A DNA stretch of 24,909 nucleotides from a virus (IMGVR_UViG_3300023371_000071); one strand, 5' to 3'; shown: positions 1 through 20,912, numbered from the stretch's first letter. Notes: generated by a model not told the origin, from the letters alone. Translations and numbers: made by a program.

Positions 1-3000
1 TCTGAAACCCATGCAGTAGAATCTTCCAATAAAGTTGCCAAATTACCTTCTGAAAAAATGCCTAAAATGTCACCGCCATAAATATCTGCCAATGCACTCT
101 AATGCTGTGCAAACACAGCTTGCCCTTCTTCGGTTTGGTAATATGCTAACTCTTCTCCTGTAAGGACATCCATATTACCTTTTGATAAATATAATTTCTA
201 TAATACAGGATCTGCAGTTGCGTAACTAGAAATTAAAGGACTTATATACTACTCTGGATTATTCATAATATCAGTAAGAGTAGGCATAGATAATAATGAC
301 GTAATAGGAATTAATAAATCTTCGACGTCTTCTGACAAAGATTTAATTGTAATCATACCAGACTCTTTATCATAATTATCCATTAATTTGTCTGTTGTCC
401 AATCATATTGACTAATATCATAATCGCTATTGGTTGCGAGATAATCTCGATATGATAATAAATAACCACCCATTTGAGCCCAATCTTGTGCTTCTGCATC
501 AGGCACCCAATTCTCAGGTAAAGAATTTACTAAAATTTCTTCTAATTTATATGGGAGAGCAGTCTATAGCCATTTCATTGTATCTGCATCATATTTAGCA
601 GTTTTATTATTGTCATTTAATAAATAATTAGCTAAAATGCCATATTGTGCAGGCTACCAAAGAGCATCAGCCCTTGCTTTAGCTGCCCCTTGTGCAAACA
701 CAGTATCTGTATTTACAGTTAAAACACCTGTATCTGTTAAAGCTCCTACAAAAGCGTTTGGATCAAAAACACTGCCATATTGAGCAGATGGATCCATCCA
801 TAAATGAAGCTATTGCTCTAATGCGTAAGGTAAATGTCCATTGTTTAAATAATCTAAAACTGCTTCTCCGGCATTTTTATATGTTTTATCATATTGTGTA
901 CTTGCCCAAGTTAAAGCTTCAGTAACAACAGTATTAATTAACGCTCTTTGATCATATTCATAATCATCGCCACTAAGAGTCTTAAAAAACTTGTCGCCAT
1001 CTGCGCTGTTTAATAACCATTGAATCGCTTCATAATTTTCAACAGACCAGCCTTGTGTTGTGTCATAACCAACCTCTTGTGCATCCTCAGGAGTTAAATT
1101 ATGTCTAGTTTCTCCCGATGGACTAGTAAAAGTTGTAGCATATTCAGGCTTAAAAGCGGTACCATATGGATTTGCCCAACCTAATATATATGGCAAAGAA
1201 CTTTCTCGTGATCCAAGTGCCTCTAATCCCGGAAAAGCTTCTTGTAAAATTTCAGGAATTATTTCTGAAGTAGTTTCCCACTTAATAGCTCCAAATAACA
1301 TAGAATGCTTAGTAGTTTTTGTTTCAGTATTAGTTAAAACATTTCCTGAAGCTCCCGCCATTTCAGCACGTCTTTCTTGCGCAATTTCCAATTGACGCAT
1401 GGATGATTCTCCTAACGCTGACCAAGCATACTGCATACCTAAATTACGTTGTTCAACTTCTAAGGCTCTAGAGACCAATAGATCCATATTAATCAAGCCA
1501 TTATCATCATATAAAGAACTTAAATCAAAATTATCTCCAAAATATTTTATTGGATCTTTTAATATCTTCCCCAATAAAGGATATGCACTTAATAATTCTA
1601 AAGTCGCAGACTAAACATTACTTAATGCTTGATACCATGCTGAAGTTCCTTCAGTGCAATTATCTAATGCTTCTCTAACACTTGTATAAGAATCAAAATC
1701 ATCTTCTAAAGAAGATATTTTATTTTTAGTATTGGTAATTGCTGTGCTTAACTCTTCAACCTAAGATTTTAAATTTTGCAAATTTTCATCTACACTCATA
1801 GGCTTTTCGACTTCTTTTCTAAAAGCAACGAATGCACCTACAACTAAAGCCAATGCTCCTACAATTAAAGTTAATGGCCAAATTGCAGTATTTAATGCAA
1901 CACCAAAACCTGTGACTGCATGTGTTGCACCAGCCGCGCCTGCTCCAACCGCAGCCGTTCCTGCCGCGCCAGCAGCTCCAGCAGCAGGCAATAGTGACAT
2001 TACGCCGATTAAGCCTTGACTGATAGAAACAAGAGTCATTACAGTTGTAATAACAAATCCTAAAATTGCATCGAATTTTTCCCAGCCAGACACTTCAGGA
2101 TCTTTTAATGTGTCAACTAAACCCTTAAAAGAATTAATTAAACCATAAATTGATTCAAGACTTCCTGCAATATCTAAAACTGCATTTAAATTTTTAGATG
2201 TTTTTTGTGCGGCTTGAGCAAAAGCTTGTTCCATCTTTTCGCCAGCTTCTTCTGCATCTTTACCCAGTTTATCTAATTTAGATCCACCTTTTTCCCATTC
2301 TTGGAATAACTCTTCAAAACGGCTTTTTAATTCTGGTGGTACCATATTTAAAATAATCGCTTTAATTTTTGGTACATTTTTAGATAATTTCGCTTCAGCC
2401 TTAGACATACCTTCAGAAATTAAATTAAATAATTGTTCAATTTCTGCTTTTGTTTTATCCCCAGCAAAAGCTTCTTCTAATGATCCAGCGTTGCCTTTAA
2501 TTTTCGCAACTTGACCATTAATTAATTTACTACCTGTTTCTTGTCCAATTCGTTCTAATTCTTTAGCATATTGCAATAGATCTTTTAGAATTTCAGCATC
2601 ACTACGATTAGATGCAAATAATTCTGGTGCTTCAATTGTTCCAAAAGTTTGTTCAATTTGTTTTCCCATATTTTTAACATCTCCAAAAGCTGTAACCAAT
2701 GTCTAAGCAGAAGAAACCGCCTAATCAAATGTTAAATTTTCTAAATCCTTAAAACCTAATTTAGTAAAACTAGAACCAAGCTCTTGTGCAAGCTAAGATA
2801 CGGTTTTTTCAAGTTCTTTAGTGGAAGTAGCATCTGTTGTAAACTTAACTTTAATATCAGCCGCATCCACTAAAAATTTTTTATTTGCTTCTTCTGTAAA
2901 TTTTTTCTTTTCTCGCGCATTTAAATAAGCATAATCCTTATTCTATTTATGAGCTCTAGCTTTAGCTTCTTGACTTACTACTTCATCTACTAATGAAGAT

Positions 3001-4856
3001 TTTTCTTTTTTCATGTTAGTCTGACGTTTTTGCTCTAATTGCATTAACTCATTTAATGCAGCAATTTGTTCTTGATAAGCTGAAATTACTGCTTTAGCTT
3101 GCGCAATTTGTCCTTCTGACATATTTTTTGATGCAACTAATAATTGATCTTTTTTCTCAGAAACTTTTAAAGCTGCATTAATTTGCATATCTTGTGATGG
3201 ATCTAATACTGAACTATCTTTCTAAATTTTTTGTAACTCTTGACGCATCTGCGCTGAATTTTGTAAAAATCTAGTTTGTTCATTCATTCCAGTAAATGCG
3301 TCTTTAATTTTTGTAGTAATTTTTGTAATACCGTTTGCAATATCATCACTAAAAGCTTGAGTTAATGCACCACCAACAGTTCCGATAATACCAGCGACAC
3401 CGCCCATACCATCAATTAAGCCGCCAAGAGTAGTTACAATTTTTTCAATTGCATTAGTCACTCCGACCAAAGCTTTATCATTAATTAAACTACTAAAAAT
3501 TTTTTCCCAGGCTGCTTGAACTCTTCTGGATGCTGCCTCCCAAGATTCTGCTGCAATATCTGCCATTTCTTGTAAAGAACCTTCCGCATTTGTTGCAATA
3601 GACATATTGGACTTATACATAGAAGAATTTTCCATTAAGGCCATCCATTGAGTATATTGTCGTTTACCGGCAATCACTTGTGCTATAGCAGTTTGCTCTG
3701 CTCGTCCCATTTCTCCCCATTTGGCCATTAAATCTTCAATAATTGTTCCCATATCTCTCAATTCGCCGTTAGCATCTAAAATAGATACACCAACTTTTTC
3801 TAATTGAGAAGATACTTGTCCAAGATTTACCCCGTCTTCTAATGTCTCTCCAAGTTTCAAATCACCAATACGAGCAAAAATTGTTTTAAATGCAGTACCA
3901 ATAGATTCTGCGGATTCACGAGTAACAGAACTAACTGTAGCAATAATGGAAGAAACTTGCTCCATTGATACACCAACTGTATTAGAAGTTGCAGCTACTT
4001 TTTGCATAGAAGTTGCAATTTCTTCTAAGCTAGTGGCGGTTTTTGCACCAAGGGCTGCCATAATATCTACATATCGTTCAAGTTCATCAGCACCGACTTG
4101 ATAAGAGTTCCATACTGCAGTTAAATATTCTGACATTTCTTGTGCAGAAGTATTAAAACTTGAATTAGCTGCCTTAATTGTAATTGCTGCTTTTTTAGCT
4201 ACCTATTCTGCACTATCGCCCTATTGAAAATAAATCAAAGATGCATCAGCATATGCTTTAGTGGTTGTAGATAATTCTCTCGCCGCGCGATTAGCCTATA
4301 CAGCAAATCGAGACATATCTTCTGCACTTTGTCCAGTAACAATACGAATATTTGTTAAAGAACTATTTAAATCTTTTACATAGGACACAGCTCCAGATAA
4401 TGCACTTTCTAAACCATGTACCATTGTAGAAGATAATTCCCATTTTACTGTATTTTTTAAAGTCTGTCCCCATGCAGCTAATGTGCTATTCATGCGCTTA
4501 ATTGGTACTTCTGCACTGGCAATAACAGAAGCCAATTGTGAAAAAGCTGCTTGACCAGTTTGTCCTGCATCTAATAAAGCATTGCCTAATTGAGTAACAG
4601 ATGTGCCAGCTTTATTTAAACTATTAACAAATGTGTTAAGATTTAATTCACCAGTATTTACATTAGTAGCCTCTTGTAAATGCTTTTTTAAATCTTGCGC
4701 AGCTTCAGAAGCTTTTTTAAGTGCTGAATCTGAAATTGCTACTTCCAAATCCACAGTTGACACTTTATTTAAGCTTTTTTGTAATTCACTTAAAGCTTTT
4801 TTAGCCTAAGAGGTGTCAGCATTAAATTGTAATGTAAACTATCTGTTTCCAGCCAT
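1..4856 (-). CDS. Tape measure protein (3' end beyond window, >1618 aa, 18 in-frame TAG)
   Basis: Six ORF-track fragments (4296, 3222, 2943, 1761, 810, 249) share one frame and each ends in TAG. The hand-translated gaps contain no TAA/TGA. ATG at 4856 has an AGGAG SD. The protein has a TP901-type TMP core (ANRAARELSTTTKAYADASLIYFQ*G...LEEIATSMQKVAA...IGTAFKTIFARI) and Ala/Gly-rich hydrophobic segments at about 1830-2090. TAGs at 4839, 4806, 4296, 4221, 4203, 3222, 2943, 2793, 2721, 2703, 1761, 1611, 810, 654, 564, 249, 198, 99. Confidence 0.93.
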
Positions 4857-4877
4857 TTACACAATCTCCTTTCTCTC

Positions 4878-4912
4878 AAAAAAGCCTGACACAAATATTG
4901 TGTCAGGCTTTT
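4878..4912 (-). terminator. Intrinsic terminator between the 174-aa gene and tape measure gene
   Basis: Perfect 10-bp stem GCCTGACACA/TGTGTCAGGC (4884-4893/4899-4908) followed on the minus strand by T6. Confidence 0.85.
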
Positions 4913-4945
4913 CTCCTAATCTCTATCAAAGTTTATTTAAATAAA

Positions 4946-5470
4946 TTAACCAATCTTATCAAGAATATCCTTCACTAATCCAATCTTATCAGGTTGATCA
5001 AGTGTTTTCATAATCTCTTCAACATTCAATTTAGTAGCATCATAATCATTAGTTACAGTTTTCATCATTCCAACAAAAGAATTCAAATACTTAACAGTAT
5101 GCTCCGCACAATCTTCAATCGCATCAAAAATAGCATCATATTCATCTTCGGGAATTGCAGCAATAACATGATCAAGAACTTCATTAATCATTAATAGATC
5201 ATAAGTATTCGGAGCATTTTCTATCATCTTATCAGTAATAGAAATATTTGTATAAGTTTTTACAATTTCAAGAATTGCATAAACTTCTAAACGAACAGGA
5301 TTCAAAAATCCAGTATCGTCAATAGTCAAATTCAATACTCGCTCAACAAGAGCAAGCTTATCATTTACAGGAAGATACTGAATGACTTCAACTTCCTGTT
5401 CACCAATCTTAATAGTCTGTGGATCAACCTTCTTAATAGGGGTGACCGCTTTCAAAGAAACTTTAGCCAT
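4946..5470 (-). CDS. Hypothetical protein, 174 aa; tail assembly chaperone candidate
   Basis: Clean ORF with AGGAG SD, ATG start, TAA stop and no TAG. The chaperone call rests only on its position directly upstream of the TMP. Confidence 0.7.
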   Translation of the reverse strand: MAKVSLKAVTPIKKVDPQTIKIGEQEVEVIQYLPVNDKLALVERVLNLTIDDTGFLNPVRLEVYAILEIVKTYTNISITDKMIENAPNTYDLLMINEVLDHVIAAIPEDEYDAIFDAIEDCAEHTVKYLNSFVGMMKTVTNDYDATKLNVEEIMKTLDQPDKIGLVKDILDKIG

Positions 5471-5503
5471 GCTAATCTCTCCTTTTTCTCATTTTATGTA
5501 TAT

Positions 5504-5532
5504 ATTATACCAGAAAATTTTTTGTTTGTCAA
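5504..5532 (-). promoter_or_regulatory. Consensus sigma70/sigmaA promoter for the 174-aa gene
   Basis: TTGACA-17 nt-TATAAT with extended -10 TG (TTGACAAACAAAAAATTTTCTGGTATAAT). Confidence 0.85.
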
Positions 5533-5538
5533 GTTAAA

Positions 5539-6816
5539 TCATCGCGTTCGTCCAATCTAATCTAATATACTTTCTAAATCTGCTAATTCAGATTCAATAA
5601 GCTATACAATCTAATTTCGTTTAGGTCCTATTATTGTTGCTGAAAATTGTCGAGCCCAATACTACTTTTCTTCTAAATCCATTTTGGCTTCAAAATCTTT
5701 GATACGTAATGCAAATTTATATACAGTTTCCATACCCGCCGCGGATGCGCCATTACTCTTTACGCCATAATAAATAGTTTTACCATTAATATCTACTCCG
5801 CCTTCAATATCTTCTGATAAGAAACCTGGAGCATTATCTACTTGATGTAACCATCCTCGTACAAAATCATCAATGCGCTCATCCCAATTGCCATGATTAG
5901 GTTTTAAAAAATCTGGCATAATGTCAACTGGATTTTTTAAATTGGGATTATTCATAAGCCTTGTGCTAAAAGTTACTAAAATATTTGCATAAGTTTCTGC
6001 TAAATCACCTAAAGAGCTGATTTCTACTTTATTCCATTCTCCGCCAATTTTCCACATTAAAAGATTAGTGCCTTTATCTTGCGCAATTTCCATTCTACGA
6101 GATAACTCATCATAAAATGCGGTTAATTGAGTCCCAATAGTTTCTAAAGCTTTATCTATTAAAGTAAAATGTTTGCCATCTGAATCTTTAATAGTTTTAA
6201 CACGAGCGGTTGCACGACCACCATGACTCAAAGAAGCAAAGTCTGTATATAAATATTTTTCACTAAATTCTTTTGCATTACCCAATAAACGAATATCCAC
6301 AGTGCCTTTTTTACCTTTAACAACATACAAATATTCAATACGTCTATTCACTAAATCTAATAGTGCATTTTGAAACTCATTACGTGCCTATTCAGCAGTT
6401 AATAATAGTTTATCAATTGTTCTTTGTTTGCCTTCTAATACACGTAACTTTTGTCGCTGTGCTTCTGCTTCTTTTTTTATATTTAATAATTGTTCCATAG
6501 CTTCTCTGCCAGAATCATCCAAAGATAACTCACCAGACTAATATGCTCTAATTGTATTAATACGGATTTTTGCTATACCAGTGCGCTTCTAAGTTTCTGT
6601 TAATTGTGTCATATATTTAGAAGCTATAGCATTATATTCACTCACAGCTGCATCTAATACCTGATAAGCATCTACAAATAATTTAGCTTTTTCGCGTAAT
6701 ACCTATCCTTGTATATTATTTTCATCTACTAAAGCGTCAGAAGCTTTTGATAAAATATCAATAATATCATCTGCCGCTTTTTGGGCTGCTTCTGTTATAA
6801 AACTATATTTTCCCAT
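5539..6816 (-). CDS. Hypothetical protein, 425 aa (8 in-frame TAG)
   Basis: ATG 6816 with AAGGAG SD. The frame is open to TGA at 5539 except TAG at 6703, 6589, 6538, 6388, 5662, 5611, 5602, 5557. It contains the 229-aa ORF-track fragment, and the N-terminal half looks helical or coiled-coil. Confidence 0.85.
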
Positions 6817-6829
6817 AGTCAATTACTCC

Positions 6830-7363
6830 TTAAGACAAAGGCTTAATTTGATCTTCTACTCCATGTACGGCATCATAAGTTGCAGACAATCCGCATAATT
6901 CACTATTCATATTTAAACCAGAACAAATTCTTAATGTAACTTCTCCAATTCCAGTTAGCTTTTGACCATTTAACATAGCATCAATTTCGCCCATAATTTT
7001 ATAAGGACGTAAAGCAAAATCACCAAGATTCCAGTGATCTGGATGACATAAAACTTTAATTTCAATTGCACAATCTCTAAATTCAGGATTAGTGTCATTT
7101 GGCATAAAATCAGTCATAGATACAATAATATAATTAGGACATTCTTTATCAATAAAAATCCAAGGCACAATTTTAATTTGCTTATTGATCATAGACAATT
7201 TTTGTGCCATGGTTAAATTTTCTGCTTTTAAACAATCTTTTTCAGTATAATAAAGCAGTTTACATAATCTATCATTGTTTAGAATTTTATTAATAATGAT
7301 CGATAAATCTTTATCTACAGATAAAAAACTGGATTTTGGGAAAAAATTTTGTCCGACTTTCAT
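6830..7363 (-). CDS. Putative tail completion/terminator protein, 177 aa
   Basis: Clean ORF with AAGGAG SD and TAA stop. Size and position next to the tail tube gene fit a tail-completion protein; the function is inferred. Confidence 0.6.
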   Translation of the reverse strand: MKVGQNFFPKSSFLSVDKDLSIIINKILNNDRLCKLLYYTEKDCLKAENLTMAQKLSMINKQIKIVPWIFIDKECPNYIIVSMTDFMPNDTNPEFRDCAIEIKVLCHPDHWNLGDFALRPYKIMGEIDAMLNGQKLTGIGEVTLRICSGLNMNSELCGLSATYDAVHGVEDQIKPLS

Positions 7364-7445: not shown

Positions 7446-8378
7446 TTATTCTTGTGCTTCATCCAACTGACCGAAGATACCAGCATCTTCAACGATCTGA
7501 AGAGCAGCAATAACCTTCTTGGTCTTGTCAAACTTGGTATAATCCGGGAAAGCATCCATGGTAAAGGTGAAGGTGGAAGGATCACCGGTAGGAGCCATGG
7601 TGAAGGTGAAGTTAGACTGAACCTTGCAGTTTGGAATAATGAACTCTGCAGGGAAGTCATCACCAGTTGCCTGATCACGGAACAAGGTAGAAGCTTCAAG
7701 ATAGTAAGAACCACCGAACTTACCAGCTTCAATATCAATCTGCTTTACGCCCTTAGCAGCTTCGATGTAGTAGTCAACATAAAGAATGTCGCCTTCTGCA
7801 ACAGTAGGAGCGTTCTGAGTGGGTAGCTTCAATTCAATATGACGAGCATCCTGATTGTAAGCGGTAGCCCAGTTATCAAGAACATCCTGAATAACCATTT
7901 CTGCACCAATATCAGTAGAAGCAATCTGCATAGGTAGCTTAGAAGCATCAATAGAGCCGTCCTCAGTCATGAGCATGATATACATTTCACCCTGATTAGA
8001 AGGCTTCTTCTCAAGCTTAACCTTTAGAGCGCCACCATCATTAACAACTTCCAACTGTTCGGTAGCATGAACATAAATCTTCTCATCATCAGAAGCATCC
8101 ATGAAACCAGCACCAGAAAGAATGGAGAAGCTCTCAGGAGAAATCAAAGCATCTTCCATAGTAAAGGTTACAACGCGGTCGCCTTCCCAAGCTACCAAGC
8201 GAGGATTACCTTTACCACCCTGAGCATAAACAGTAGTAGCAGTACCTTCAAGACTGGAAGTCTTCAAGGTATCGAAATAAAGAACAGGCATGTTCTTATC
8301 CAAATAAAGCTTACCGAAATAACCGCCGGCCTTCTTCTTTAGCACAACGTCACAAATTTCGCGTACACCAAATTTCAT
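7446..8378 (-). CDS. Major tail (tube) protein, 310 aa
   Basis: Beta-rich tube-like motifs (TTVYAQGGKGNPRLVAWEGDRVVTFTMEDAL; SNFTFTMAPTGDPSTFTFTMDAF), AAGGAGG SD, high-expression codon style, strong downstream terminator, no TAG. Confidence 0.8.
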   Translation of the reverse strand: MKFGVREICDVVLKKKAGGYFGKLYLDKNMPVLYFDTLKTSSLEGTATTVYAQGGKGNPRLVAWEGDRVVTFTMEDALISPESFSILSGAGFMDASDDEKIYVHATEQLEVVNDGGALKVKLEKKPSNQGEMYIMLMTEDGSIDASKLPMQIASTDIGAEMVIQDVLDNWATAYNQDARHIELKLPTQNAPTVAEGDILYVDYYIEAAKGVKQIDIEAGKFGGSYYLEASTLFRDQATGDDFPAEFIIPNCKVQSNFTFTMAPTGDPSTFTFTMDAFPDYTKFDKTKKVIAALQIVEDAGIFGQLDEAQE

Positions 8379-8403: not shown

Positions 8404-9150
8404 TTAATGGATATTTTTCATCCAATCATTGGGCTTGCCATCGGGTTTACCTCCGGCCAAGCGAGACCGTATGTCTAAATCCCAACTAATCCATAAGCCA
8501 TATCGTTCAATTAAATCATATAGCTAATAAACAGTTAGATCTAAACACTTATCTAGACTCATTGAATTTAATCCAATAGTAAGAATAGATACATAACGAG
8601 CTAACACGCTTCCTTCCCCTTCTCCTCGTAGCTGGGCTGCTCTCTAACGACCTTTCATTAGCTTGGCCGCAATTTGAGCGGCTCGCTCATTAGCAGGGTT
8701 GAAATTAGAATTCTATCCACCCGCAGTATTATTCATACCAGCCATATTTGTTAATACAGCCTAAAAAGCATCAAAATTATTTTCATCTAAAACAAAGTGG
8801 TGCTAAGTTTCAGCATTATTAAAATAGATGCTATGAGGAAGAAATTGAGCGGTATACCCAGGAAAAAGTAATACAAACATTGAAATCATTGCATTTCGTT
8901 TTTCATTTACGTTTTTCATTTCTGGGTCTGTTACCAACGTCATAAATATCTAAAAATTATTCATAGCCTATAGAGCAGAACTGCCCTATGGGTTTGCAGC
9001 TATGATTATCTATTTATTGAAGCATAGTATTTGTAACGATGAAAAATACTATTCTTCGCCTAAGAAAGAAATTTCTCTAATAGTTGGCTAATGTAAACTT
9101 GTACCTAATTCTGGAATTGGGATATCGGTTCCAGCCATTAACTGCAACAT
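8404..9150 (-). CDS. Hypothetical morphogenesis-region protein, 248 aa (11 in-frame TAG; absent from the ORF track)
   Basis: ATG 9150 with GGAGG SD. Hand translation MLQLMAGTDIPIPELGTSLH*PTIREISFLGEE*...LYDLIERYGLWISWDLDIRSRLAGGKPDGKPNDWMKNIH, TAA at 8404. It fills the 8379-9165 gap almost exactly. TAGs at 9088, 9049, 9010, 8986, 8968, 8950, 8803, 8761, 8713, 8644, 8524. Confidence 0.88.
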
Positions 9151-9165: not shown

Positions 9166-10110
9166 TTAAAACAGCGATTCAACAACAACTGTTTTTACAA
9201 GAGGTCCATAATGAATTTCAAATTGTCCACTAACCATCGCGGTCCATTGAACAGTTAACACATTTTTATCTGTGCTCCAAGTTAATACATCAGCAACCTC
9301 TTTATTATCAGAAGCTAACGTAATATACCAATAGCAATCGGGATCAATAAGATTAGAGGTATAAGATACACTTTGCAAAGGTTTAATAAATGTTTCTCCA
9401 GAAATTTGCGGCGCCAATGGTGCCTCAACCTCTTTATTGGGATCAACAACCTCTACAAGCAATTCATCATGATGACAATCATAATCTTCTTCTGCAGTCA
9501 CTTCCAATACTCCTGGTGTACTAATAGCATCAGGAGCTTGCACCATCCAAGTGCGTCCCGCAAATGAAAATCTACAGTAGCGCTCAAATAATTGTCGATT
9601 TTTTTCTGTATTTGGTACATAAAAAACTAATGACATATTCGGCACATCTGCAACAATACCAGCCTTTTGAATTGTATTAATTTTAGTTTCAACTGGTCCT
9701 CTAATTGAGCCATAGATTGTTAATTTATCTCCAGTGTCTGGATCTTCTACTTCAATCTCTTGGCATCGTCTAATATTGCCCCTAAAGTAGGCTAACTCCG
9801 TTAACTCTTGTTTAAGAATAATCCAATGGATATGAGAATCCTTTGGCCATTCAAAAGTATCACCCGGCTTAAAGTCATGTTTCCAATCGACCGATACAAT
9901 TTTTTCATCATAGTCAAATTTCACTTTATCCGGATTGATTAATGCCCTACACCATTCAGCATCTTCTGCATCTTTTCTAATCCAACCAGATTGATAAGAA
10001 TACAAAAGTGCACGATGAAAAGAGCGTTCTTTATCTCGAATCATGCGCTCACGCTGGCGATCATTATTCGCGTAAATCGCACGAATTCGCATTCTATCTA
10101 AATTATCCAT
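9166..10110 (-). CDS. Putative head closure/neck protein, 314 aa
   Basis: Clean ORF with TAA stop and no TAG. It lies between the adaptor and tail genes and has a beta-rich, possibly Ig-like, C-terminus. The function is inferred from synteny. Confidence 0.6.
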   Translation of the reverse strand: MDNLDRMRIRAIYANNDRQRERMIRDKERSFHRALLYSYQSGWIRKDAEDAEWCRALINPDKVKFDYDEKIVSVDWKHDFKPGDTFEWPKDSHIHWIILKQELTELAYFRGNIRRCQEIEVEDPDTGDKLTIYGSIRGPVETKINTIQKAGIVADVPNMSLVFYVPNTEKNRQLFERYCRFSFAGRTWMVQAPDAISTPGVLEVTAEEDYDCHHDELLVEVVDPNKEVEAPLAPQISGETFIKPLQSVSYTSNLIDPDCYWYITLASDNKEVADVLTWSTDKNVLTVQWTAMVSGQFEIHYGPLVKTVVVESLF

Positions 10111-10393
10111 CCAATAAAGAGTTAGCTAATTCAGTTAATAAAGAAATAGAACTAAATACAGCTACTCTATATGTCATAAAATCTGTGGTCTGCGGCAAAC
10201 CTTCTAATTTCGATAAAAGAATTAAAAGATTCAATTGATCGCCAAACATTGCCTATAGACCATACAATTCATTCAAAACAGAGCCTAATTGCTTTTGCCA
10301 ATCCTCATTATTTTCTCGCATTGGTAGCAATTTCCAAACTTGGTTTATTAAACGTCTTAAATCTTTATTGAGAGTTTCATTAGAAAAAATCAT
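10103..10393 (-). CDS. Hypothetical protein, 96 aa (1 in-frame TAG; absent from the ORF track)
   Basis: ATG overlaps the upstream TGA (ATGA). MIFSNETLNKDLRRLINQVWKLLPMRENNEDWQKQLGSVLNELYGL*AMFGDQ...LANSLLDG, TAG at 10253, TAA at 10103 overlapping the next start region. Confidence 0.8.
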
Positions 10394-11028
10394 TTTCCAA
10401 TTGCCTCCCATCCCCACATATCATCACAGTTACAATCTTCTGTGTTAGAAGTTTTATCACTAGTGATTGGGATCCAGTCTGGATCATCGCAATCGCAATT
10501 AATATTGCCATTTACATTAGAACCAGTACCAGTACCCACTGTTGTGGAAGTGGTAGCACCTCCATCAAATACACTTTGTCTGAAGATACTCCAATTAGAT
10601 TCAATTCTACCATCACTGGTATTTCTACGACGTTTATATAAACGTTGTGCGTGAGTTGACTCACGCACATTCTCTGATTTTAATTGTAATAGTTTAGATA
10701 AATGATTGGCTTGAGAAGTCATTTTGAAGTCTGAACCAGAATACTTCATTCGAGTATTCTCAATAGAATTGATCTATCGCTCAAGCCAAGCAGTTTTCAT
10801 CAAAAGAGCTAAAATATGAATTTCTTCAATCGTTAGATCGACATTATACTGTTCCAGCTCTTCGTCGTAGTTATACAATTGAAAACGAGGAAATTCAAAA
10901 AATGGGATGGCATCCAATAGAAACTGTTTTACATCACGCAAAGTATCTTCATAGGTCAACTCAAGATACATATCATCTGTAATCTTGCCGAAGAATCTAT
11001 TATAGATAGTTTCAAAGGATGTTGCCAT
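10390..11028 (-). CDS. Putative head-tail adaptor/connector, 212 aa (1 in-frame TAG)
   Basis: The 84-aa and 119-aa fragments share one frame and are joined through TAG 10774 (AWLER*INSIENTRMKYSGSDFKMTSQANHL). GGAGG SD, TGA stop, helical adaptor-like N-terminus two genes downstream of the MCP. Confidence 0.75.
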
Positions 11029-11031: not shown

Positions 11032-11622
11032 TTACGCCTCCTGCTTTGGAGTGACTACCTTATACTGCGGGACTGCGGTACGACGGCCAGTAGCAGGCTG
11101 TGCTTCCTCAGTCTTCACACGACGCACAGGAGTAATTGCTTCGGCTTTCACGCCAGACTCTTCTTCCTCTGCCTTGCGAGCTTCTTCCAAATGCTTAATC
11201 GCTGCGGTTACGTCGAAGCCCATCTTTTCTTTGATAGCTTCACGCTTACGATTATCATTTACTGGAAGTGCCACAGCGTGCTTCTTAATTAAATCAAGCA
11301 CGCCTTCGGGAGCAAAATCCAAACAATCTAAGAATGCATCAATAGAACCTTTTTCAAGTAGATCAATAACACCCTTTTCATCCAAATAATATTCAGGCTC
11401 AACTTTTACAGACATTTCTTGTAGAGCGGACTCATCCTGAACAAATAGATGCTTGCGAATTAGATTCATGCCGCCGGGCAAATAAGACAGAGCATTTAGT
11501 TCGTCCATAGAAATGGTTTTTACTTCGTTGGGAGCAAACTCGCGACGAACACCCATTTCCGGCACACTGTATACAACCATAGAACTACTTCTATTCTTTA
11601 CAGAAACTTTCTTATCACTCAT
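11032..11622 (-). CDS. Hypothetical virion-associated protein, 196 aa
   Basis: Clean ORF with AAGGAG SD, TAA stop and no TAG, directly after the MCP terminator. Confidence 0.8.
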   Translation of the reverse strand: MSDKKVSVKNRSSSMVVYSVPEMGVRREFAPNEVKTISMDELNALSYLPGGMNLIRKHLFVQDESALQEMSVKVEPEYYLDEKGVIDLLEKGSIDAFLDCLDFAPEGVLDLIKKHAVALPVNDNRKREAIKEKMGFDVTAAIKHLEEARKAEEEESGVKAEAITPVRRVKTEEAQPATGRRTAVPQYKVVTPKQEA

Positions 11623-11643
11623 ATTTTAAAACTCCTTTTACTC

Positions 11644-11671
11644 AAAAATGGGGAGGGAGTGATCCCTCCCC
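11644..11671 (-). terminator. Intrinsic terminator after the major capsid gene
   Basis: 9-bp stem GGGGAGGGA/TCCCTCCCC with a 4-nt loop, followed by ATTTTT on the minus strand. Confidence 0.8.
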
Positions 11672-11686
11672 GATATATTTATTTAA

Positions 11687-12733
11687 TTAACCAGAAACCT
11701 TGTCACCATCATAAACCTTGGTATCCAAGGAGTTGTTTACATAAACGCAAATGTCAGGAGTCATAACGACGCCAACGCCAACCTTCTTGTAAACCTGGAT
11801 TTCACGGCTACGATCCTTGTTAACATACTCGTCAACAATGGTAGCACCTTCCATAACAACCTTAGCTGGCTTTACAGAACCAGGTAGGATGTAGCAATGG
11901 GAAGGATCAATAACCTTCTCGGTATGAGTAGCATCAGTGAAACCTTGTGGAAGAATAACAACAGGATGATTCTTATAAGAAGCAAAGCGACCATTATTCC
12001 AGATAACATCCTTCATGTTGTCAGACCACATATTAGCATTCTCAGGACGAATGGTGCTAGCAAACTCCTCAGTGCAGTAGATGGTAGGAGTACCATAAGC
12101 TGCAGCAATAGAAATAAGACGATCGAATGCCTTCTCGTCGAAAGCAGAAGCCTCAACCTTATTCATGGTTGGAAGCTGATTCAAACCAGTCTTAAGAGCC
12201 TGACCGATCTCCCAGTAAATAAGCTCGTCCATGCCGTCCATAACGATCTTGGTAACTTCAGCAAAATCAGCACGACCATCAAGGAACTCCTCAAGACCGA
12301 TCTGAGCTGCGCCACCAATAGCGCTGGTCTGCATTTCGATAGCAGTATCCTTACCAAGCTTAAAGACTTCGTAGATACCTGCAAGTCCGACCTTGGTAAT
12401 AAACTGCTTAGCACGCTGACGATCATGGTGACGATGGAAGATAGCCTTATCGCCCTGACCAATGGTCTTGATCTCAGCAAACTGACCATAGTTTTCCATA
12501 ACCTTCTTAGGAAGTACTTCATCCATAGTCTGCTCAATTAGAGCAAAAATCAAATTCTTATTCTCACGATACTGAGCGAAAGTGCCAGCATACTCGTTGA
12601 GTTCACGGCGAAGAGTCTCATTAAGAGCATCATAAGTCAAATTCTCGCCGTTAAAGCTGTAAGCAACCGGAGCGGAGCGATCAGCTTTAGCAGTAGCCTT
12701 CATAAGCTTCAAAAGTTCATTTCTTTCTAACAT
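11687..12733 (-). CDS. Major capsid protein (HK97-fold candidate), 348 aa
   Basis: Size, position after the protease and accessory gene, strong SD, high-expression codon bias and downstream terminator. No TAG. Confidence 0.85.
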   Translation of the reverse strand: MLERNELLKLMKATAKADRSAPVAYSFNGENLTYDALNETLRRELNEYAGTFAQYRENKNLIFALIEQTMDEVLPKKVMENYGQFAEIKTIGQGDKAIFHRHHDRQRAKQFITKVGLAGIYEVFKLGKDTAIEMQTSAIGGAAQIGLEEFLDGRADFAEVTKIVMDGMDELIYWEIGQALKTGLNQLPTMNKVEASAFDEKAFDRLISIAAAYGTPTIYCTEEFASTIRPENANMWSDNMKDVIWNNGRFASYKNHPVVILPQGFTDATHTEKVIDPSHCYILPGSVKPAKVVMEGATIVDEYVNKDRSREIQVYKKVGVGVVMTPDICVYVNNSLDTKVYDGDKVSG

Positions 12734-12756
12734 AGCTAGTTTCTCTCCTTTCCGAA

Positions 12757-13461
12757 TTACTGAATACGCATGACCTTAACGGCCTTCTGCATATCGCCTA
12801 AATTGTATACCTTAACAACCTGCCACAACATGCCGGACTCAGCCTCGGTCTTAGCCAAGTAGCCCTTTGCATTAGGAGCAAGAATGTCACCAAGAGCAAG
12901 AGTTTCCTCTGCAACACAGTTAGTAGTAAAGATGTCGCCCTCATGAGTCTTGAATAGACGAGGAGTCATCATACCCTGAACATCAGAAAGTAGCTGAGGC
13001 TGATTTAGATTCTCAATCTCATAGGACTGACCAATCTTCAAATGCATACGACCAAAGTCATCAGCAGCACCCTCATCAGTATAACCAGCAGCATAAACAT
13101 CGGTCTCAGCACCGATAGTCTTCATCTGGTTGTCAACATCGCCCTTAGCGCCAACTGGGCTATAAACATAACCATTGTAGTCACGAGCGATCATAGCGAA
13201 GTCCTGGTCGGTCTCCCATGGAGCATAGACCTTAACTTCATTGAAGATAAGCATCCATTCGCCCTTACCTTCAAAATCAACAGTACCATTTACATAGTTG
13301 TACTTAGCAAACTGACCATTCTCTAGGATCTTGATATCCTTATGAGCAGGCAACTGAGCATAAATTTCACCAGTGCGCTGTGCGGAGAGATGGTTAGGCT
13401 CAACCTGACCGAAGCCATAAGTTACATACTTAGCTTCAGGAGATAATCTTTTAAAAGCCAT
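12757..13461 (-). CDS. Capsid accessory/decoration protein candidate, 234 aa
   Basis: Clean ORF between scaffold and MCP with the same high-expression codon style, AGGAGG SD and no TAG. Confidence 0.6.
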   Translation of the reverse strand: MAFKRLSPEAKYVTYGFGQVEPNHLSAQRTGEIYAQLPAHKDIKILENGQFAKYNYVNGTVDFEGKGEWMLIFNEVKVYAPWETDQDFAMIARDYNGYVYSPVGAKGDVDNQMKTIGAETDVYAAGYTDEGAADDFGRMHLKIGQSYEIENLNQPQLLSDVQGMMTPRLFKTHEGDIFTTNCVAEETLALGDILAPNAKGYLAKTEAESGMLWQVVKVYNLGDMQKAVKVMRIQ

Positions 13462-14897: not shown

Positions 14898-14912
14898 TAT
14901 TTAACTTCCTCC

Positions 14913-16520
14913 TTAATTAGCAGATTCCTTATTCTAAATAGTTTTTTCAGATTTCTGTCCATCTGGTTTTTCAGGACGACCGCCTTTATTTTCAGAGGAA
15001 GAACCTGTCTAAGAACTTTGAGCTTTCTTCTAAGCCTTCTATCCTAAGATGTCCTCACCATTCATTGTAGAACTCATAATCGGTGGGATCATAATTTCAT
15101 ACAAGTGCAATACTTCATTTTCAAAGTGTGCAGTAGCAATAATAGCACTTTGAGAATGACCCATCGCAATCTGCGGTAGCATCTTGGAGTAACCAATCTG
15201 CACTTGTTCCTTATACATCTTCGCAAGCTCGATGTAGTTGTAGACTGTCGTCTCCAACATATACACTCTAAAGTTATACTTCTTCTTACCGGGGAACTTG
15301 TGACGAACGATCTTGTTTAACATATTACCAAACTGTAGAATCAAATTGCGCATTGAAGCCTCATCATTTAAGATAGACTTTTCAAGAGCAATATTACCAT
15401 CTGTATTAAACAAGTTCTAAGAAACACCAAATTGGTTATACAAAGTTCTTTCAACCTTTTCCAAATCATCGGTAGAGGTTGTAGTATTTTTATCCGCCAA
15501 GTCCGCAACAGAGGTATCCGCAAATGTAGTCATAACGTCTACACCAACCGCACGCTTCAACATCTGAACCGCATTGTTGTGAATATCTTTTGCTTCATCA
15601 ACGTCAAAAATCAAATCACCATTCTTATCAAGAGGAAGTTTCTGAATTACAATTTTCAACAATTTCTGCATGGTCTTGCGACGGTCTAAATCCTGCGCTG
15701 CATCCAAATCCAAAATCGCGGGAATCGCATTTGCAAGAATTGGATAGTCACTACCATTCAGATTTAATTTAATCGCACAAGCGGGATCAAGTAAATACCA
15801 CCCAGCTTGAGAGCCAGATTCATCTTTAAGTTTGCCTTTCTTGTATAAAACATAACCTTTGGCAAACTCTTCTGGGAACATCTTTAAAATTCTAAGTCGC
15901 TGTTCAATAGTTGGGAACTTATCATCAAAGAACTTCATATTGAACTCAACGGCCGGCGAATCGCCAACCATATAACGACTGCGACAATAAGCAACTGGCA
16001 ATTCCTGCAAGGTCATGCCATTAGTGGTATCTACAATATAACCATAGTAGCAACCATTCTTAATAACCTAAAGGGCTACATTGCCGCACATGTATTTAAT
16101 ATTTGAGTTATCTAAATAATTAAGAACCTTAGAAAACTCACTTAGAATTTTTTCTTCCTTGATAGAATCATCTTCAACATATGGAACAACATACCAGTCA
16201 TATCTATACAAAAATGCAAAATATTTGCATAGACGTTCATAGATACCACTTACCTCATAGAAGTAATTTGATATTTCACGCAAGGTGTTATAATCCTTAG
16301 TAGCTAATGCGCGTAAAACCGCATTCTTGTCACCATATGTACGATTGGTCTTTTTTAAAGCACCCAAATCTAAAATAGCATCATCAAGGGTTTGTAGACC
16401 AATACGAATCTTGCTAAAATCAAGTGGCTCATTATTTTCCGGATCAATATAATCAATATCCCTGCGAGGCGGAGTTAATGCAAAACCTTTAGCACGGATT
16501 TCATCCTATCTTCTTCGCAA
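14913..16520 (-). CDS. Portal protein, 535 aa (7 in-frame TAG)
   Basis: Three same-frame fragments joined through TAG at 16506, 16068, 15417, 15039, 15030, 15009, 14934. TTG start at 16520 lies 8 nt from GGAGG, with TAA at 14913. It has a typical GGRP C-terminal motif and lies between terminase and protease. Confidence 0.88.
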
Positions 16521-16533
16521 CCGTCACACCTCC

Positions 16534-16890
16534 TTAATAGCCAGCCTTTGTCATAATATAATCATAAGTAATAAGATTCTCTTCTGTATACGGAATTTCA
16601 ACTAATGGGATTTCCTTTAATGCACAAAAACGACGTTTCTTGTTATCATTGAACTACTGTTGATAAAAACCTTTTGTTCCACCAAATTTACTTGATGGTT
16701 CATAATGTTGTTTACCTTGATATTCAATAAGGAAATCAATATTTCCATCATCGTCAAATACACAAAAGTCAAACCGCAAAGGACGACCATTCGGGCTATT
16801 TAAACCCTCAAATGATTGTTCCATTGTGAACCGCAATCCCGCCTCTTCCAGAATCTCTTGAATCTTGATTTCTCCACGAGACGCTCTCAT
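16534..16890 (-). CDS. Small DUF559/Vsr-like PD-(D/E)xK endonuclease-fold protein, 118 aa (1 in-frame TAG)
   Basis: Motifs S.GE..I...L, LRFDF.VF, LIEYQGKQHY. Readthrough of TAG 16654 adds FNDNKKRRFCALKEIPLVEIPY, which completes the domain, and the stop is TAA at 16534. Confidence 0.8.
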
Positions 16891-16902
16891 AATGGACCTC
16901 CC

Positions 16903-18645
16903 TTAGTTCATAAACATCATTTCAGAAATTCTGCCTTTGCGTTTACGCTTTTTACTATCTTCCTCTTGTTTAATATAGTACAAGCCATATTCAAAAGCAG
17001 AGAACTTATCTTTCTTAATTGACTTATTAGCTTGCTTTAAAATGATGTTAACACCTTCGTTTTCTTCACGAAGATTCATCATCTCTTCCTTCAATATGGA
17101 AGTTAGAGTAAACGGTTTAAGATATTCCGCCCTCTCTTCAGGTTTCATATCTTGTCCACGCTTAGTTCCCATTAACTTAACTTTTGCCACACGTTCATCA
17201 ATCAGCATCTTTACTTTACCAGAAGATAACTGAGTTTGCGCATTCGCGTGAGCTTCAGTGTTAATAGGTGCATTGGCCTTAATAATATACATAGCATCAA
17301 ACTCACAGGCATCAGTGCGGAACTTCTTATAATAATTTTCTTCATCGTTCTCAACACCAAAGTCAGGATAAGTTTCATTAGTATCCGGATCAATTTGAGT
17401 TTTTACCATATAGTCAACAAGACCAATACCAAGACCATTACCGTCGATAACAATACGACGAGCCTTGTATTTATAGAACAACTTCTTCAATGCAATAGCT
17501 TGATCTTCAAAGTGTTCATCATGTAAAGTATAAATATTTACCAAAGTCTTTAATGATACACCCGCAGTCTGTGGTGTTACCTTAAATACACAAACTACAG
17601 TATCGCAACCTTTACGACCTACGTCAACCGCAAGTACATAATACGCAGACTTCATAGATCTACCAGAATACTCGTATTCAGGCTGCTTTAAGATTCTATT
17701 ACGATCAAATTGCTCAGCACGGAAGAACGCATCTTCAATAGTGCCAGACCATTTAGATTCATACTCACGGTCAAAAGAGGACTCATTAAATGTACCGTCC
17801 AATTTCAAGTCGCGCACAAAGTTCTTATCAAGTAATTTCATAAGAACAGGAATTCTCCAAGTACCACCCATAATACAAAACTTCTCCGGTTGCGTAATCT
17901 GTCCAACAAGCATTTGAATCAACTTATCATAAGCGAAAGTATTCTTCCAGCCCGCAGTTGTAACAAAGATCTGACTTTTATTCAGAACCTCTTGATCATC
18001 AGAAGTACCATCCGGCAATCTGCGAGAAACGTTCATAACTGGAATAATAACTTCGTTTAGGATAGTTCCATCTACGCCAACGCACTCCTCAACAAGTCCG
18101 CCATGTCGGCGCTTACCTCTTGATTTTTCGCTAGCACCCAAGTTATCAATATAAGAACCACTTCGGAAAATATATTTACAATAGTCTTTACCTTCTAATG
18201 TTTTACCACGGCCCCAGTCAATCTCTTTTGCGAAGCCCGGCACAAGAGTACAGATTTCCTGGACTTTTTCTTTCAAAATACCAGAAGCCTGTTCCTTACC
18301 ACCAGAAGTAACAAATAGTTTAGATCCCGCATATAGTACTGCACGAGTCATCAAAATCAAAACCGCAAGGAATGATTTTGAATAAGCACGCGGAAAGACC
18401 GCATACACGTATTTGTAACGCATAGCGGCCCGCAAAAATACTCGTTGATAAAAGAATAAGTTAAGCGTTTCCTTTGGAGGATTTGGCTGCCATTTACCTG
18501 CCATGAAGTCAACAAACATGTCAGGGTATTCGCGCCAATAGGCAATATACTAACGTGCGACCGGAATAACGGCCCGCACACGCTCTTCAGATAAACCAAT
18601 TTTCTATCGGTCGTTTGAGAGGTTTAATAAGTCTTGTAAAGCCAT
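16903..18645 (-). CDS. terL: Terminase large subunit, 580 aa (2 in-frame TAG at codons 14 and 32)
   Basis: Walker A-like FPRAYSKS, Walker B-like GGLVEE, RNase H-like nuclease motifs YVLAVDVGR, IDGNGLG, KDKFSA. The start extends to ATG 18645 (MALQDLLNLSNDR*KIGLSEERVRAVIPVAR*YIAYWREYPDMF) with a GGAGG SD, through TAG 18604 and 18550. Confidence 0.92.
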
Positions 18646-18646
18646 A

Positions 18647-19819
18647 TTATTCCTCCTTTAACATTTCCATCATCGTTAAGGCATCATCTTCAGCCTCTTG
18701 TTCTAAGAATTCATAGTGTTCGGCAAAGTCATCATCTTTCAATTCATCAAGAGAATCCATATCCATAATTTCATCTTCATCATCAATATCTTCATCTTCT
18801 TCGCGTTCGGCTTCGCGCTGCAATGCCTTAACCGCAGATTCGATAAGATTACCAAGATTCATCTCTTCAGTAACAAGAGTGTTAGTGTAGCCACGCAAGT
18901 CCGCAAGAGTTTCATCAACTCTATCCTTCGGCTTGTCGGTATAGAAACGAGGAATAAATCCCTCTTCTTTTTCACATAATAAAACCAGTTCAGAAATTGA
19001 GTTAACAAACTCGCCAGCCTCAGCCTTATTCTGAACCGCAGTAAATTTAGCGGATTTCATCAAAGCGTCATAAACCTTAGACATCTTTTGGAAACCTTCG
19101 ATGTCGCCCAAGTCAATCAGTTGATGAGCCTTGATTGAAGTTTTACAAATAAGCTTTAAATAGTCTTCATGAGATGGAGTCTGAATATCGAACGATTGCA
19201 TCATCTCTTGATAATACTTCTCTAACTGAACCCATTCATACGGTTTGTAGGTCTTGCCCCACTTAATCGCCAAGTAAGTTTTATCTTCTTCAGTTAGATC
19301 ATCTTCGAATCCCACTGGCTCAAAGGCATCAATCGGAGCAGGCTCCTCTCGTGTTGCTTCTAGTTCAGCGGGTCTTTCAGGTGTCCTGTTTGCGGCGAGA
19401 GCTTCCTCAATCTCTTCTCCAGTATAGCCTTGTCGAGCCATAACGTCTCGCTTCCGCGCATCCATTTCAGCCTTAATCTTTTCAGTATCTTCCCATGAAT
19501 AATTTTTGTATTGATTCAATTTCATTTTGGAAAGGTAACGACCCAAGATGGTCATACCAGTAACCTTGGTGCGGTCCTTGCCATAACGTTCAAGTAGAGT
19601 ATTCCATTCCTCTTCAATATAAGGAACATTGATCTCTTCCAAAATCCATAAATAAGTTTTCGGATTCCAATTGTCTACATGTCGAGTGATGCATTTCTTA
19701 CATTCAGGTAATTTACCATCGTCGGGGTATCTATCCAACCGATTAGATGTGTAAAATTGATCAGTATCCATCGTTCGACCGCAGACCTTACAATAATAAG
19801 TTTTATTTAAGTCTGCCAT
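18647..19819 (-). CDS. N-terminal Zn-finger protein, 390 aa; terminase small subunit candidate
   Basis: CKVC...CKKC near the N-terminus, acidic C-terminus, and it abuts terL. No TAG. The TerS role rests on position only. Confidence 0.6.
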   Translation of the reverse strand: MADLNKTYYCKVCGRTMDTDQFYTSNRLDRYPDDGKLPECKKCITRHVDNWNPKTYLWILEEINVPYIEEEWNTLLERYGKDRTKVTGMTILGRYLSKMKLNQYKNYSWEDTEKIKAEMDARKRDVMARQGYTGEEIEEALAANRTPERPAELEATREEPAPIDAFEPVGFEDDLTEEDKTYLAIKWGKTYKPYEWVQLEKYYQEMMQSFDIQTPSHEDYLKLICKTSIKAHQLIDLGDIEGFQKMSKVYDALMKSAKFTAVQNKAEAGEFVNSISELVLLCEKEEGFIPRFYTDKPKDRVDETLADLRGYTNTLVTEEMNLGNLIESAVKALQREAEREEDEDIDDEDEIMDMDSLDELKDDDFAEHYEFLEQEAEDDALTMMEMLKEE

Positions 19820-19824
19820 TCACA

Positions 19825-20886
19825 TTACTCCTTTGCCTTCTTGTTCTTGGCATTCCGGCAACACTTACACAAAGAATACCATCCATCTCTTGAACCTTTG
19901 TTTATGGAAAAAAATCTTGAATGGGCTAACTTAATTTGCCCACACCTAGTACATTTCTTCCACTTCCCATATTCTTTTTCAGTATAATACCAGGTCAGCC
20001 ATTCATCTGTATAATAAGAGGCAATGAGCTTTGGAATTTTATTACGCCATAACGAAGAAATATATTCGAGCGAATGAGTGAAGCCGAATTCCTTTTCAAT
20101 CATTTCCTTGATATCAACATTAGATTGCCCGTCAATTTTATATTCTACAATACGACGGTATAAAGGATAGCCGGCAAGTGAATTATCTACTAATCTATCA
20201 AAGTCTTCCATCATATACCAGGTATCACCCTCGAACCTGCCATAGCATCCTTCTTTTAGTTTAGAATAATTGCATAAAATAGTGCTAATAACAACGGGAT
20301 TGATAAAGGACACACCTTCATACTGGATTTCTCCATTTTCATCTACCCATTCATCCCATGGGAGTTTAATATAGTGTCCGATATTTCTTGTAATATTTCG
20401 CGCAACAATTGGTTGGCGGTAGGCGTTTTTAATAAGATATTGATCCTTCCGCAATTCGATAATAGTTGATTTGATAATATAGGCTGCTCGCCCAGTCGCA
20501 GTTTTAGACAGCTTTTCCCAATATGCTATGCTGTCGCGCAACTGACGTAATGGCTCAATTTCTTCTAAATCTTTTTTCGTAATTGTTACTTTCGGCTAAA
20601 ATATTACATTCTTATCGTTCGTTACTAAATTATATATACCATCTTCGCCATTCTCCAACTGGCCAACAAGACCCTCGAAAGATGTTTCTCGTTTATTGAC
20701 AGTCGCCATACGGTTGTCGGTGAGAATCTTTCGCTCCTTCTTCTCTTGTTTCTCCATACAAAGAACCAAATAATCAGCAAGGATTTCCAGATATTGCTCG
20801 CTTGGGTCGGGAGTCTCTGTTAAAATCTATTTCACCAATTCATTTCGCTCTTGAGGAGATTCAATCGTATAATCTAGCTTGATTAT
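19825..20886 (-). CDS. Putative DNA-binding regulator, about 353 aa, with HTH-like region and C-terminal Zn ribbon (2 in-frame TAG, non-ATG start)
   Basis: The frame is open from the AGGAGG SD (about 20896-20901) to TAA 19825 except TAG 20827 and 20596. It has CTRC...CKCC at the C-terminus and a region resembling sigma region 4 HTH (YRRIVEYKIDGQSNVDIKEMIEKEF...EYISSLWR). There is no ATG near the SD, so the start coordinate is uncertain (ATA 20886, ATT 20889/20892, or TTG 20895). Confidence 0.7.
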
Positions 20887-20912
20887 AATAATCAACCTCC
20901 TTCTATGCCTCT

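Follow-up and report, generated by a model that had tools for sequence, protein, structure and literature searches.

How a phage can translate genes that are repeatedly interrupted by TAG is the question raised by the viral sequence IMGVR_UViG_3300023371_000071, a stretch of 24,909 nucleotides referred to here as the window. An initial annotation had proposed that TAG is reassigned to a sense codon, probably for glutamine (Gln), across the virion module that occupies positions 1 to 20900. Our analysis leads us, with high confidence, to the view that the window carries the SPbeta-like (Yon/Yom) virion and packaging module of an animal-gut siphovirus of ~170 kb in which UAG is read as Gln (NCBI translation table 15) and never as a terminator; the hosts of this phage are probably Bacillota.

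TAG is a sense codon in this phage. Nine genes on the minus strand contain 51 in-frame TAG codons and no in-frame TAA or TGA. From the left, they encode the tail tape measure protein (TMP; 3..4856; 18 TAG), a 425/427-aa protein (5539..6822; 8 TAG), a 248-aa YomV-like virion protein (8404..9150; 11 TAG), a 96/104-aa protein (10103..10417; 1 TAG), a 212-aa putative adaptor (10390..11028; 1 TAG), the 535-aa portal protein (14913..16520; 7 TAG), a 118-aa HNH/homing-endonuclease-like (DUF2726-like) protein (16534..16890; 1 TAG), the 580-aa large terminase (TerL; 16903..18645; 2 TAG), and a 356-aa sigma-factor-like regulator (19825..20895; 2 TAG), counts that reproduce exactly those first reported. 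TAG makes up 20% of the stop triplets in the other two frames of these genes, so that 51 TAG among 51 in-frame stops has a P of ~3e-36. Recalling genes with table 15 instead of table 11, a check that the initial annotation had suggested, raised the coverage of positions 1-20900 by greedy tiling of open reading frames (ORFs) from 0.73-0.79 to 0.978, and the table-11 fragments on the minus strand merged into 18 tightly packed genes. The sequence contexts originally cited for recoding are present as well, IYFQ*G at TMP residue 208 and GVS*NLFNTDG at portal residue 365. An ENA contig (ena:ERZ27248457:k141_453581; 40,801 bp) is 100% identical to the window, which corresponds to its positions 226-25134, and the earlier statement that no complete gene ends in TAG holds for the window and this source contig alike: TAG terminates none of the ~52 genes on the contig, and its complete ORFs all end in TAA or TGA.

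The same codons recur in other samples and in relatives. Eighteen sequencing runs on animal gut or faeces, drawn from at least 12 studies, contain the window DNA. Two assemblies made from different samples (L122 and L123), with 96.5% nucleotide identity, keep every alignable TAG outside the TMP gene (25/25 and 13/13, respectively), including all 11 of the YomV-like gene in both, and L122 keeps all seven portal TAGs and both TerL TAGs; in the divergent TMP N terminus of these assemblies, TAG alternates with CAA only. IMG/VR contains 287 contigs with a related portal gene, and the comparisons reported here use the best 80 (portal identity, 56-82%). Within the homologous genes of these 80 relatives, in-frame stops amount to 1425 TAG versus a single TAA or TGA, and the distribution is bimodal, with relatives having either 20-66 TAG per ~4,700 aligned residues or 0-1. 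The idea that the standard code holds, with the TAGs being genuine stops in a phage that is defective or decaying, or else C-to-T errors of sequencing or assembly, would account for the fragmentation of genes under table 11 but retains a negligible probability in the face of an in-frame stop complement consisting wholly of TAG, the same TAGs in independent assemblies from other samples, dozens of relatives that conserve TAG at homologous positions with alternation to CAA or CAG only, and the fact that no gene ends in TAG.

The identity of the encoded residue was addressed by masking the window TAGs as X, aligning the proteins to the DNA of the relatives, and reading the opposite codons, which made 30 of the 51 TAGs assessable. 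The residues opposite were predominantly Gln (Q, 575; K, 184; TAG, 156; D, 122; S, 100), and several TAG columns hold Gln codons and TAG only. A column-weighted likelihood, calibrated on the same alignments, placed Gln 23.7 units ahead of the next residue. In the reciprocal test, in-frame stops of the relatives stood opposite window Gln codons at a frequency of 8.6% and opposite codons for any other residue at 0.6% or less. When six standard-code lineages were considered alone, TAG columns were 47% Gln, compared with 49% in a control of true Gln columns, with Gln the best residue by 20.6 units, and Gln likewise won when eight recoded relatives were each tested singly. TAG columns that are invariant across the standard-code lineages are Gln in 8 of 9 cases and Glu in none, against a background Gln share of 4.3% among invariant columns.

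Individual genes show the same preference. Six TAG columns of the YomV-like protein and residue 85 of the 212-aa protein are invariant Gln in the six standard-code lineages (the relatives have Q in 49 cases and TAG in 12 at the latter), portal residue 5 is invariant Gln in standard-code lineages, and the column of sigma-like residue 100 reads QQQQQR across the six. At residue 79 of the 118-aa nuclease-like protein, relatives have Q (53) or TAG (29) and nothing else, and TMP positions 17, 187, and 212 are occupied by TAG, CAA, or CAG, plus one CGA. Residue 55 of the 96/104-aa protein lies in a column that is variable (N/D/Y) in standard-code relatives, with TAG kept in L122 and L123. As judged from these alignments, TAG is shown to be interchangeable in evolution with CAA and CAG and under the same purifying selection as Gln. 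The proposed assignment to Gln was thereby upheld in every comparative test run (likelihood margins, Gln share, and invariant columns), among them the tabulation of homologous residues that had been recommended with it. By sequence criteria, in that its in-frame stops are all TAG, TAG never terminates a gene, and homologs have Gln opposite TAG, the window is a genuine segment of a code-15 phage.

As the initial annotation had remarked in the case of a suppressor tRNA, a scan of the window with ARAGORN found no tRNA. Three close relatives that are near-complete, with portals 69-76% identical, carry 18-34 tRNAs each, including one tRNA(CUA) each. Among complete relatives with tRNA arrays, tRNA(CUA) is present in 4/5 recoded genomes and in 0/5 non-recoded genomes, although the latter encode 21-37 tRNAs each. 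A search for release factor and glutaminyl- or glutamyl-tRNA synthetase (GlnRS/GluRS) domains (RF-1 and tRNA-synt_1c) found none in three complete relatives or in the recoded human-gut phage phAss-1. We propose that UAG is decoded by a phage-encoded tRNA(CUA) from another part of the genome, to which a host enzyme attaches Gln.

The close relatives have a tRNA(CUA) of 88-95 nt in which the 1-72 pair is weak (U-A, A-U, or U.U), position 73 is G (G73), and the variable region spans 19-23 nt. Such long-arm amber suppressor tRNAs lie at L113:11105-11197 (minus strand), L114:10186-10280 (plus strand), and L116:12625-12714 (plus strand) in IMG/VR relatives and also in L127-L154. A further recoded relative (G011) has a tRNA(CUA) of ordinary form (75 nt). 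The extra arm forms a 3-bp helix in 21 of 22 distinct IMG/VR long-arm tRNAs, in four fully compensated versions (UCC/GGA, CUC/GAG, UGC/GCA, and CAC/GUG), and the 7-nt loop that it closes, Y-U-CUG-A-A or Y-U-UUG-A-A, has the frame of a Gln anticodon loop. In each of three samples containing the window, a single contig spans a whole long-arm tRNA(CUA), an observation of co-occurrence and not of linkage, and these three contigs share one variant in which arm positions 48 and 58 change together from C-G to U-A. Run X9, which contains 58% of the window's words only, has no contig over the long-arm tRNA, an absence that carries no weight. A GlnRS-type anticodon-binding domain is encoded by two Lachnospiraceae metagenome-assembled genomes (MAGs) with related phage contigs but not by a Bacilli MAG, making an anticodon-reading GlnRS plausible in the host clade.

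The extra arm may thus be a small copy of the Gln anticodon stem-loop, plausibly keeping Gln identity while the true anticodon reads UAG. We tentatively suggest that decoding is split from charging in this way, the CUA anticodon reading UAG and the miniature Gln stem-loop in the arm serving as an identity element for an anticodon-reading host GlnRS, although we would stop short of calling this probable. If true, such a design would account for efficient translation of genes with at least 18 UAG codons and for the constancy of the Gln meaning across lineages. The classical amber suppressor supE of E. coli, which suppresses weakly, differs from an ordinary tRNA-Gln by a single anticodon change to CUA and reads UAG in competition with release factor 1 (RF1). 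The tRNA family of these phages resembles supE in being a candidate Gln-inserting, UAG-reading tRNA that would compete with RF1 but differs in adding a second Gln-anticodon-like stem-loop and in having to support 18 or more UAG codons within a single gene. No description of long-arm suppressor tRNAs in phages came up in a literature search, and this decoy-anticodon design appears to be undescribed.

Several points weigh against Gln as the meaning of UAG or against a phage tRNA as its decoder. The 40.8-kb source contig has no tRNA, and hence no tRNA(CUA), and the link between the long-arm tRNA(CUA) and this phage is drawn from co-occurrence in samples. Three recoded relatives (82-92% complete) show no tRNA at all; these are G010, G012, and G014 (the contigs behind L035, L045, and L077), which are 143-177 kb long and have 19-50 TAG columns, and for them either the tRNA array belongs to the part absent from the contigs or suppression has another source. 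A long variable arm normally marks Ser, Leu, or Tyr tRNAs. Twenty of the 51 TAGs have no alignable relative (12 after residue 630 of TMP and 8 in the 427-aa gene, where the absence of any family or relative match leaves the opposite residue unassessable). The column of TAG residue 34 of the YomV-like protein is Asp in all distant standard-code lineages, though variable (I/E/N) in closer relatives; a second apparent Asp column adjoins a QQ pair, and closer relatives have TAG or Gln there. As a single transition turns CAG into TAG, common ancestry by itself enriches Gln columns, and the case for the amino acid is one of evolutionary equivalence, not of peptides.

Some of these observations would suit a sense codon for another residue, either Glu, if a non-discriminating GluRS charged the tRNA and no amidation followed, or Ser, Leu, or Tyr, in keeping with the class-II-like long arm of the 88-95-nt suppressors. 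The second-best residue is indeed often Glu or Lys, and a few TAG columns are acidic in distant relatives. We nevertheless regard this as very improbable: Gln outscores Glu by at least 22 log-likelihood units, and Ser, Leu, and Tyr by more, in the window and in every recoded relative whatever its suppressor type; none of the invariant columns is Glu, Ser, Leu, or Tyr; and the long arm bears a Gln anticodon loop (CUG or UUG) and not a Ser/Leu-type arm.

Other features of the clade's tRNA genes were seen in passing. The arm sequence of the long-arm tRNAs also contains AGGAGG. Several tRNA genes are lengthened by inserts (40-76 nt or more) within or close to the anticodon loop, such as L172:5366-5510 (minus strand) in G013, with a 76-nt AT-rich insert, and tRNA matches of >115 nt in G004, G006, G007, G008, and G009. 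The 145-nt tRNA-like match in the recoded relative G013 was rejected as a suppressor, being an intron-containing tRNA with an anticodon other than CUA. In G004, a 72-nt, 28%-GC tRNA-like gene with anticodon UUA, which would read TAA, adjoins the CUA suppressor (L116:12843-12914, plus strand), and G001 has a 72-nt tRNA-like gene with anticodon UCA, which would read TGA (L113:4751-4822, minus strand); no in-frame TAA or TGA was seen in the virion genes of G004 and G001.

The proposal that TAG is recoded across the virion module stood for the nine genes listed above and needs qualification for four others, which are TAG-free both here and in nearly all relatives. These four are the genes for the 310-aa tail tube protein (YomU_Tube, PF27173; 7446..8378), a 196-aa head-module protein (11032..11622), the YonB-family putative major capsid protein (348 aa, PF27364; 11687..12733), and a 234-aa protein in the scaffold position (12757..13461), all on the minus strand. 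TAG occurs in the tube gene in 1/53 relatives, in the 196-aa gene in 3/60, in the capsid gene in 0/66, and in the scaffold-position gene in 1/71, compared with about one-third to two-thirds of relatives for each other gene. Within recoded relatives, TAG accounts for 12-47% of Gln-like codons in the other genes and for 0-2% in these four. The four genes (7446-8378 and 11032-13461; L001-L080) are richer in G+C at third codon positions (GC3) and prefer CAG clade-wide; both the tube and the 196-aa genes of the window prefer CAG. CAG shares are 0.62-0.73 for the 196-aa gene, 0.89 for the capsid gene, and 0.88 for the scaffold-position gene. In non-recoded relatives, the CAG share is 0.57-0.73 in the four genes versus 0.15-0.35 elsewhere, and for the tube gene it is 0.83 in recoded and 0.66 in non-recoded relatives. 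From gene to gene, the TAG share declines with increasing GC3 (rho -0.69, p 0.002). At the other extreme, TAG is the main Gln codon of the YomV-like gene (11 TAG versus 5 CAA/CAG).

Because the genes that are spared are GC3-rich, CAG-preferring genes that are also CAG biased without recoding, TAG behaves as the least favored Gln codon under ordinary translational selection, and such behavior fits RF1 competition and the need for very high per-codon read-through in a gene with 18 TAGs. We suggest that TAG is a costly, non-optimal Gln codon, one that low-copy late genes (TMP, portal, TerL, and YomV-like) use at 10-47% of their Gln positions and that is kept out of genes needed in hundreds of copies (capsid, tube, and scaffold-like) and out of the neighboring small rightward genes. 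The gene-by-gene pattern shows a captured codon that is treated as the worst Gln codon and not a uniform switch. The searched text of the preprint on recoded gut phages by Borges et al. (10.1101/2021.08.26.457843) contains no mention of a sparing of high-copy virion genes.

A different explanation for the placement of the TAGs is that they act mainly as a temporal gate, with late genes remaining untranslated until the phage suppressor tRNA accumulates, as in the code-switch model set out in that preprint (10.1101/2021.08.26.457843). Consistent with regulatory placement, key genes have their first TAG near the start (portal codon 5, TMP codon 6, TerL codon 14, and sigma-like codon 23), and the adjacent block of small rightward genes is TAG-free. 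This block, which begins divergently at 20987..24909 on the plus strand, has neither in-frame TAG nor TAG stops, is rich in CAG and TGA stops, and continues on the source contig to ~34.5 kb (window-equivalent); of the 29 genes called in the remainder of that contig (window-equivalent 22.9-40.2 kb, with the block included), 1 has an in-frame TAG, and the stops are TGA in 23 and TAA in 6. However, the capsid, tube, and scaffold-like genes of the same late operon are ungated, the TAG share follows an ordinary codon bias that is also seen in non-recoded relatives, the TAGs are spread along genes (quintile counts 9, 8, 4, 3, and 9), and the homolog of the rightward gene at 21708-22526 has TAG in 38/78 relatives. 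A role chiefly as a gate therefore strikes us as rather unlikely. The gate and poor-codon ideas are not mutually exclusive, and the pattern in the rightward block is compatible with the code-switch model without requiring it. Beside these patterns, 16 of the 18 stops in the leftward late operon are TAA and its preferred Gln codon is CAA, while the rightward block has mostly TGA stops and CAG for most Gln, so that late operon and small rightward genes constitute two codon regimes in one phage.

The nearest characterized system is phAss-1, a phage with TAG-to-Gln recoding in 41 ORFs and suppressor tRNAs that belongs to the proposed genus Phassvirus (nucleotide identity among members, 80-86%; Babkin et al. 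2023, PMC10607447) and which NCBI classes under "Caudoviricetes code 15 clade." It is a closer precedent than the Lak and crAss-like phages offered in the initial annotation, although the recoding precedent itself checks out. Both phages are large gut siphoviruses whose structural modules are SPbeta-like, both use TAG for Gln in late genes such as TerL, portal, and TMP, the phAss-1 major capsid protein is not among the recoded signature proteins, and phAss-1 resembles the present group in having a large tRNA array with a tRNA-Sup(CUA) and no aminoacyl-tRNA synthetase of its own (PMC10607447). They differ in portal sequence (36.7% identity, with no nucleotide match), in genome size (~168-174 kb versus 136 kb for phAss-1), and in source (animal versus human gut); in addition, the phAss-1 suppressor (105747-105820) is an ordinary 74-nt tRNA, unlike the 88-95-nt long-arm form of the close relatives of this phage. 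The lack of nucleotide similarity and the low portal identity imply that the phage of the window is not a Phassvirus, and sequence comparison places its relation to phAss-1 at the level of the wider SPbeta-like group only.

The precedent of Borges et al. was confirmed in the preprint (10.1101/2021.08.26.457843) and in Peters et al. (PMC9523058), the latter giving peptide proof of Gln at TAG in crAss-like phages only. The phages of the preprint resemble this one in reading TAG as Gln (via phage suppressor tRNAs and in standard-code hosts, as is presumed here too), in concentrating recoding in structural genes, in having recoded and standard-code lineages as close relatives, and in including 150-200-kb Firmicutes-infecting clades in animal guts; some Lak and Agate phages have release factor 2 (RF2), unlike the relatives studied here, in which no RF2 was found (10.1101/2021.08.26.457843). 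TAG-to-Gln recoding is already published for related gut phages, and nothing here is new in kind. For annotation, the consequence is that table 11 shatters TMP, portal, terminase, and other genes of this phage or of its ~290 IMG/VR relatives, and that about half of the clade needs table 15. With recoded and non-recoded lineages side by side and the presence of tRNA(CUA) tracking the code, the clade is a good natural system for studying stop-codon capture.

The assignment of the module itself came from profile and database searches. On the identical contig, Pfam identified PF27364, PF27290, PF27269, PF27173, PF27211, PF27256, and, weakly, PF27287, matches that follow the SPbeta family order YonG, YonD, YonB, YomV, YomU tube, YomW, YomO. 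PHROG profiles identified tape measure, portal, a split pair of terminase-half families, HNH/homing-endonuclease-like and sigma-factor-like proteins, and several virion proteins, and both PHROG and Pfam alignments are continuous across TAG positions; a separate Pfam-A profile search of the window proteins named the TMP domain alone. A whole-window megablast search of phage records gave no match. By tblastn with the portal, the closest deposited phages are an unannotated human-faecal contig (57% identity) and phAss-1, followed by standard-code Enterococcus, Lactococcus 949-type, Bacillus, and SPbeta-like Staphylococcus phages (25-32%, with the Staphylococcus phages at 25%). Bacillus phage SPbeta and large Bacillota siphoviruses (Enterococcus EF1/VRE9 and Lactococcus 949) have the same gene families, in the common order YonG, TerL, portal, YonD, YonB, YomV, YomU tube, YomW, YomO, TMP, but use the standard code and have portal identities of 25-32% only. 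Relatives on MAG-binned contigs point to Lachnospiraceae (two MAGs) and Bacilli, but the host assignment is weak, since it depends on three contigs in all that are probably phage contigs and not integrated prophages.

The remaining details of the leftward genes can be given in order along the minus strand. The portion of the TMP gene present, the N-terminal 1618 codons, runs off the start of the window and has TAG at residues 6, 17, 187, 212, 218, 545, 638, 688, 712, 718, 1032, 1082, 1349, 1401, 1431, 1536, 1553, and 1586; PF10145 and the TMP PHROGs align over residues 11-528, spanning five of them. A 174-aa, weakly YomO-like protein in the tail-chaperone position (4946..5470) is TAG-free here and has TAG in 8/12 relatives. 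Next come the gene at 5539..6822, in which 427 codons are open apart from TAG, and the 177-aa YomW-family virion protein (PF27256, phrog_6123; 6830..7363), which lacks TAG here but has it in 25/55 relatives. The YomV-like protein matches PF27211 and phrog_4051 (residues 2-247). A 314-aa virion-module protein (9166..10110) is TAG-free, with TAG in 30/55 relatives, and the 96/104-aa and 212-aa proteins match phrog_29637 and phrog_3853, respectively. The 469-aa YonD_N-family head protein (PF27290; 13488..14897) and the 390-aa YonG_N-family protein (PF27269; 18647..19819) are likewise TAG-free here, with TAG in 27/78 and 32/65 relatives. The portal has TAG at residues 5, 151, 368, 494, 497, 504, and 529, its relatives align over residues 1-535, and phrog_2739 spans residues 65-534. 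TerL has TAG at residues 14 and 32 and matches phrog_15503 in its N half and phrog_24618 in its C half, with a weak TerL match to phrog_5909. The sigma-factor-like regulator, the first gene of the leftward block, has TAG at residues 23 and 100 and matches phrog_5767 over residues 34-349. A code-15 ORF with 2 TAG at 23483-24283 (minus strand) was not counted as a gene, as it overlaps better-supported plus-strand genes.

Two further observations concern gene content. In strains that are otherwise 96.5% identical, the slot of the 427-aa gene (5539-6822) is taken by a different 392-aa gene (L122:15915-17093), and TMP, which has 3818 aa there, diverges to 78% nucleotide identity in part; together, the 427-aa gene and TMP form a hypervariable tail region. 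The nuclease-like gene at 16534-16890, which matches phrog_9084 and phrog_559, sits between portal and TerL. This minus-strand gene and the C-terminal part of the 272-aa gene at 21708-22526 (plus strand) match the same DUF2726-like region of a relative (L161:6241-6594), and their nuclease domains look like paralogs.

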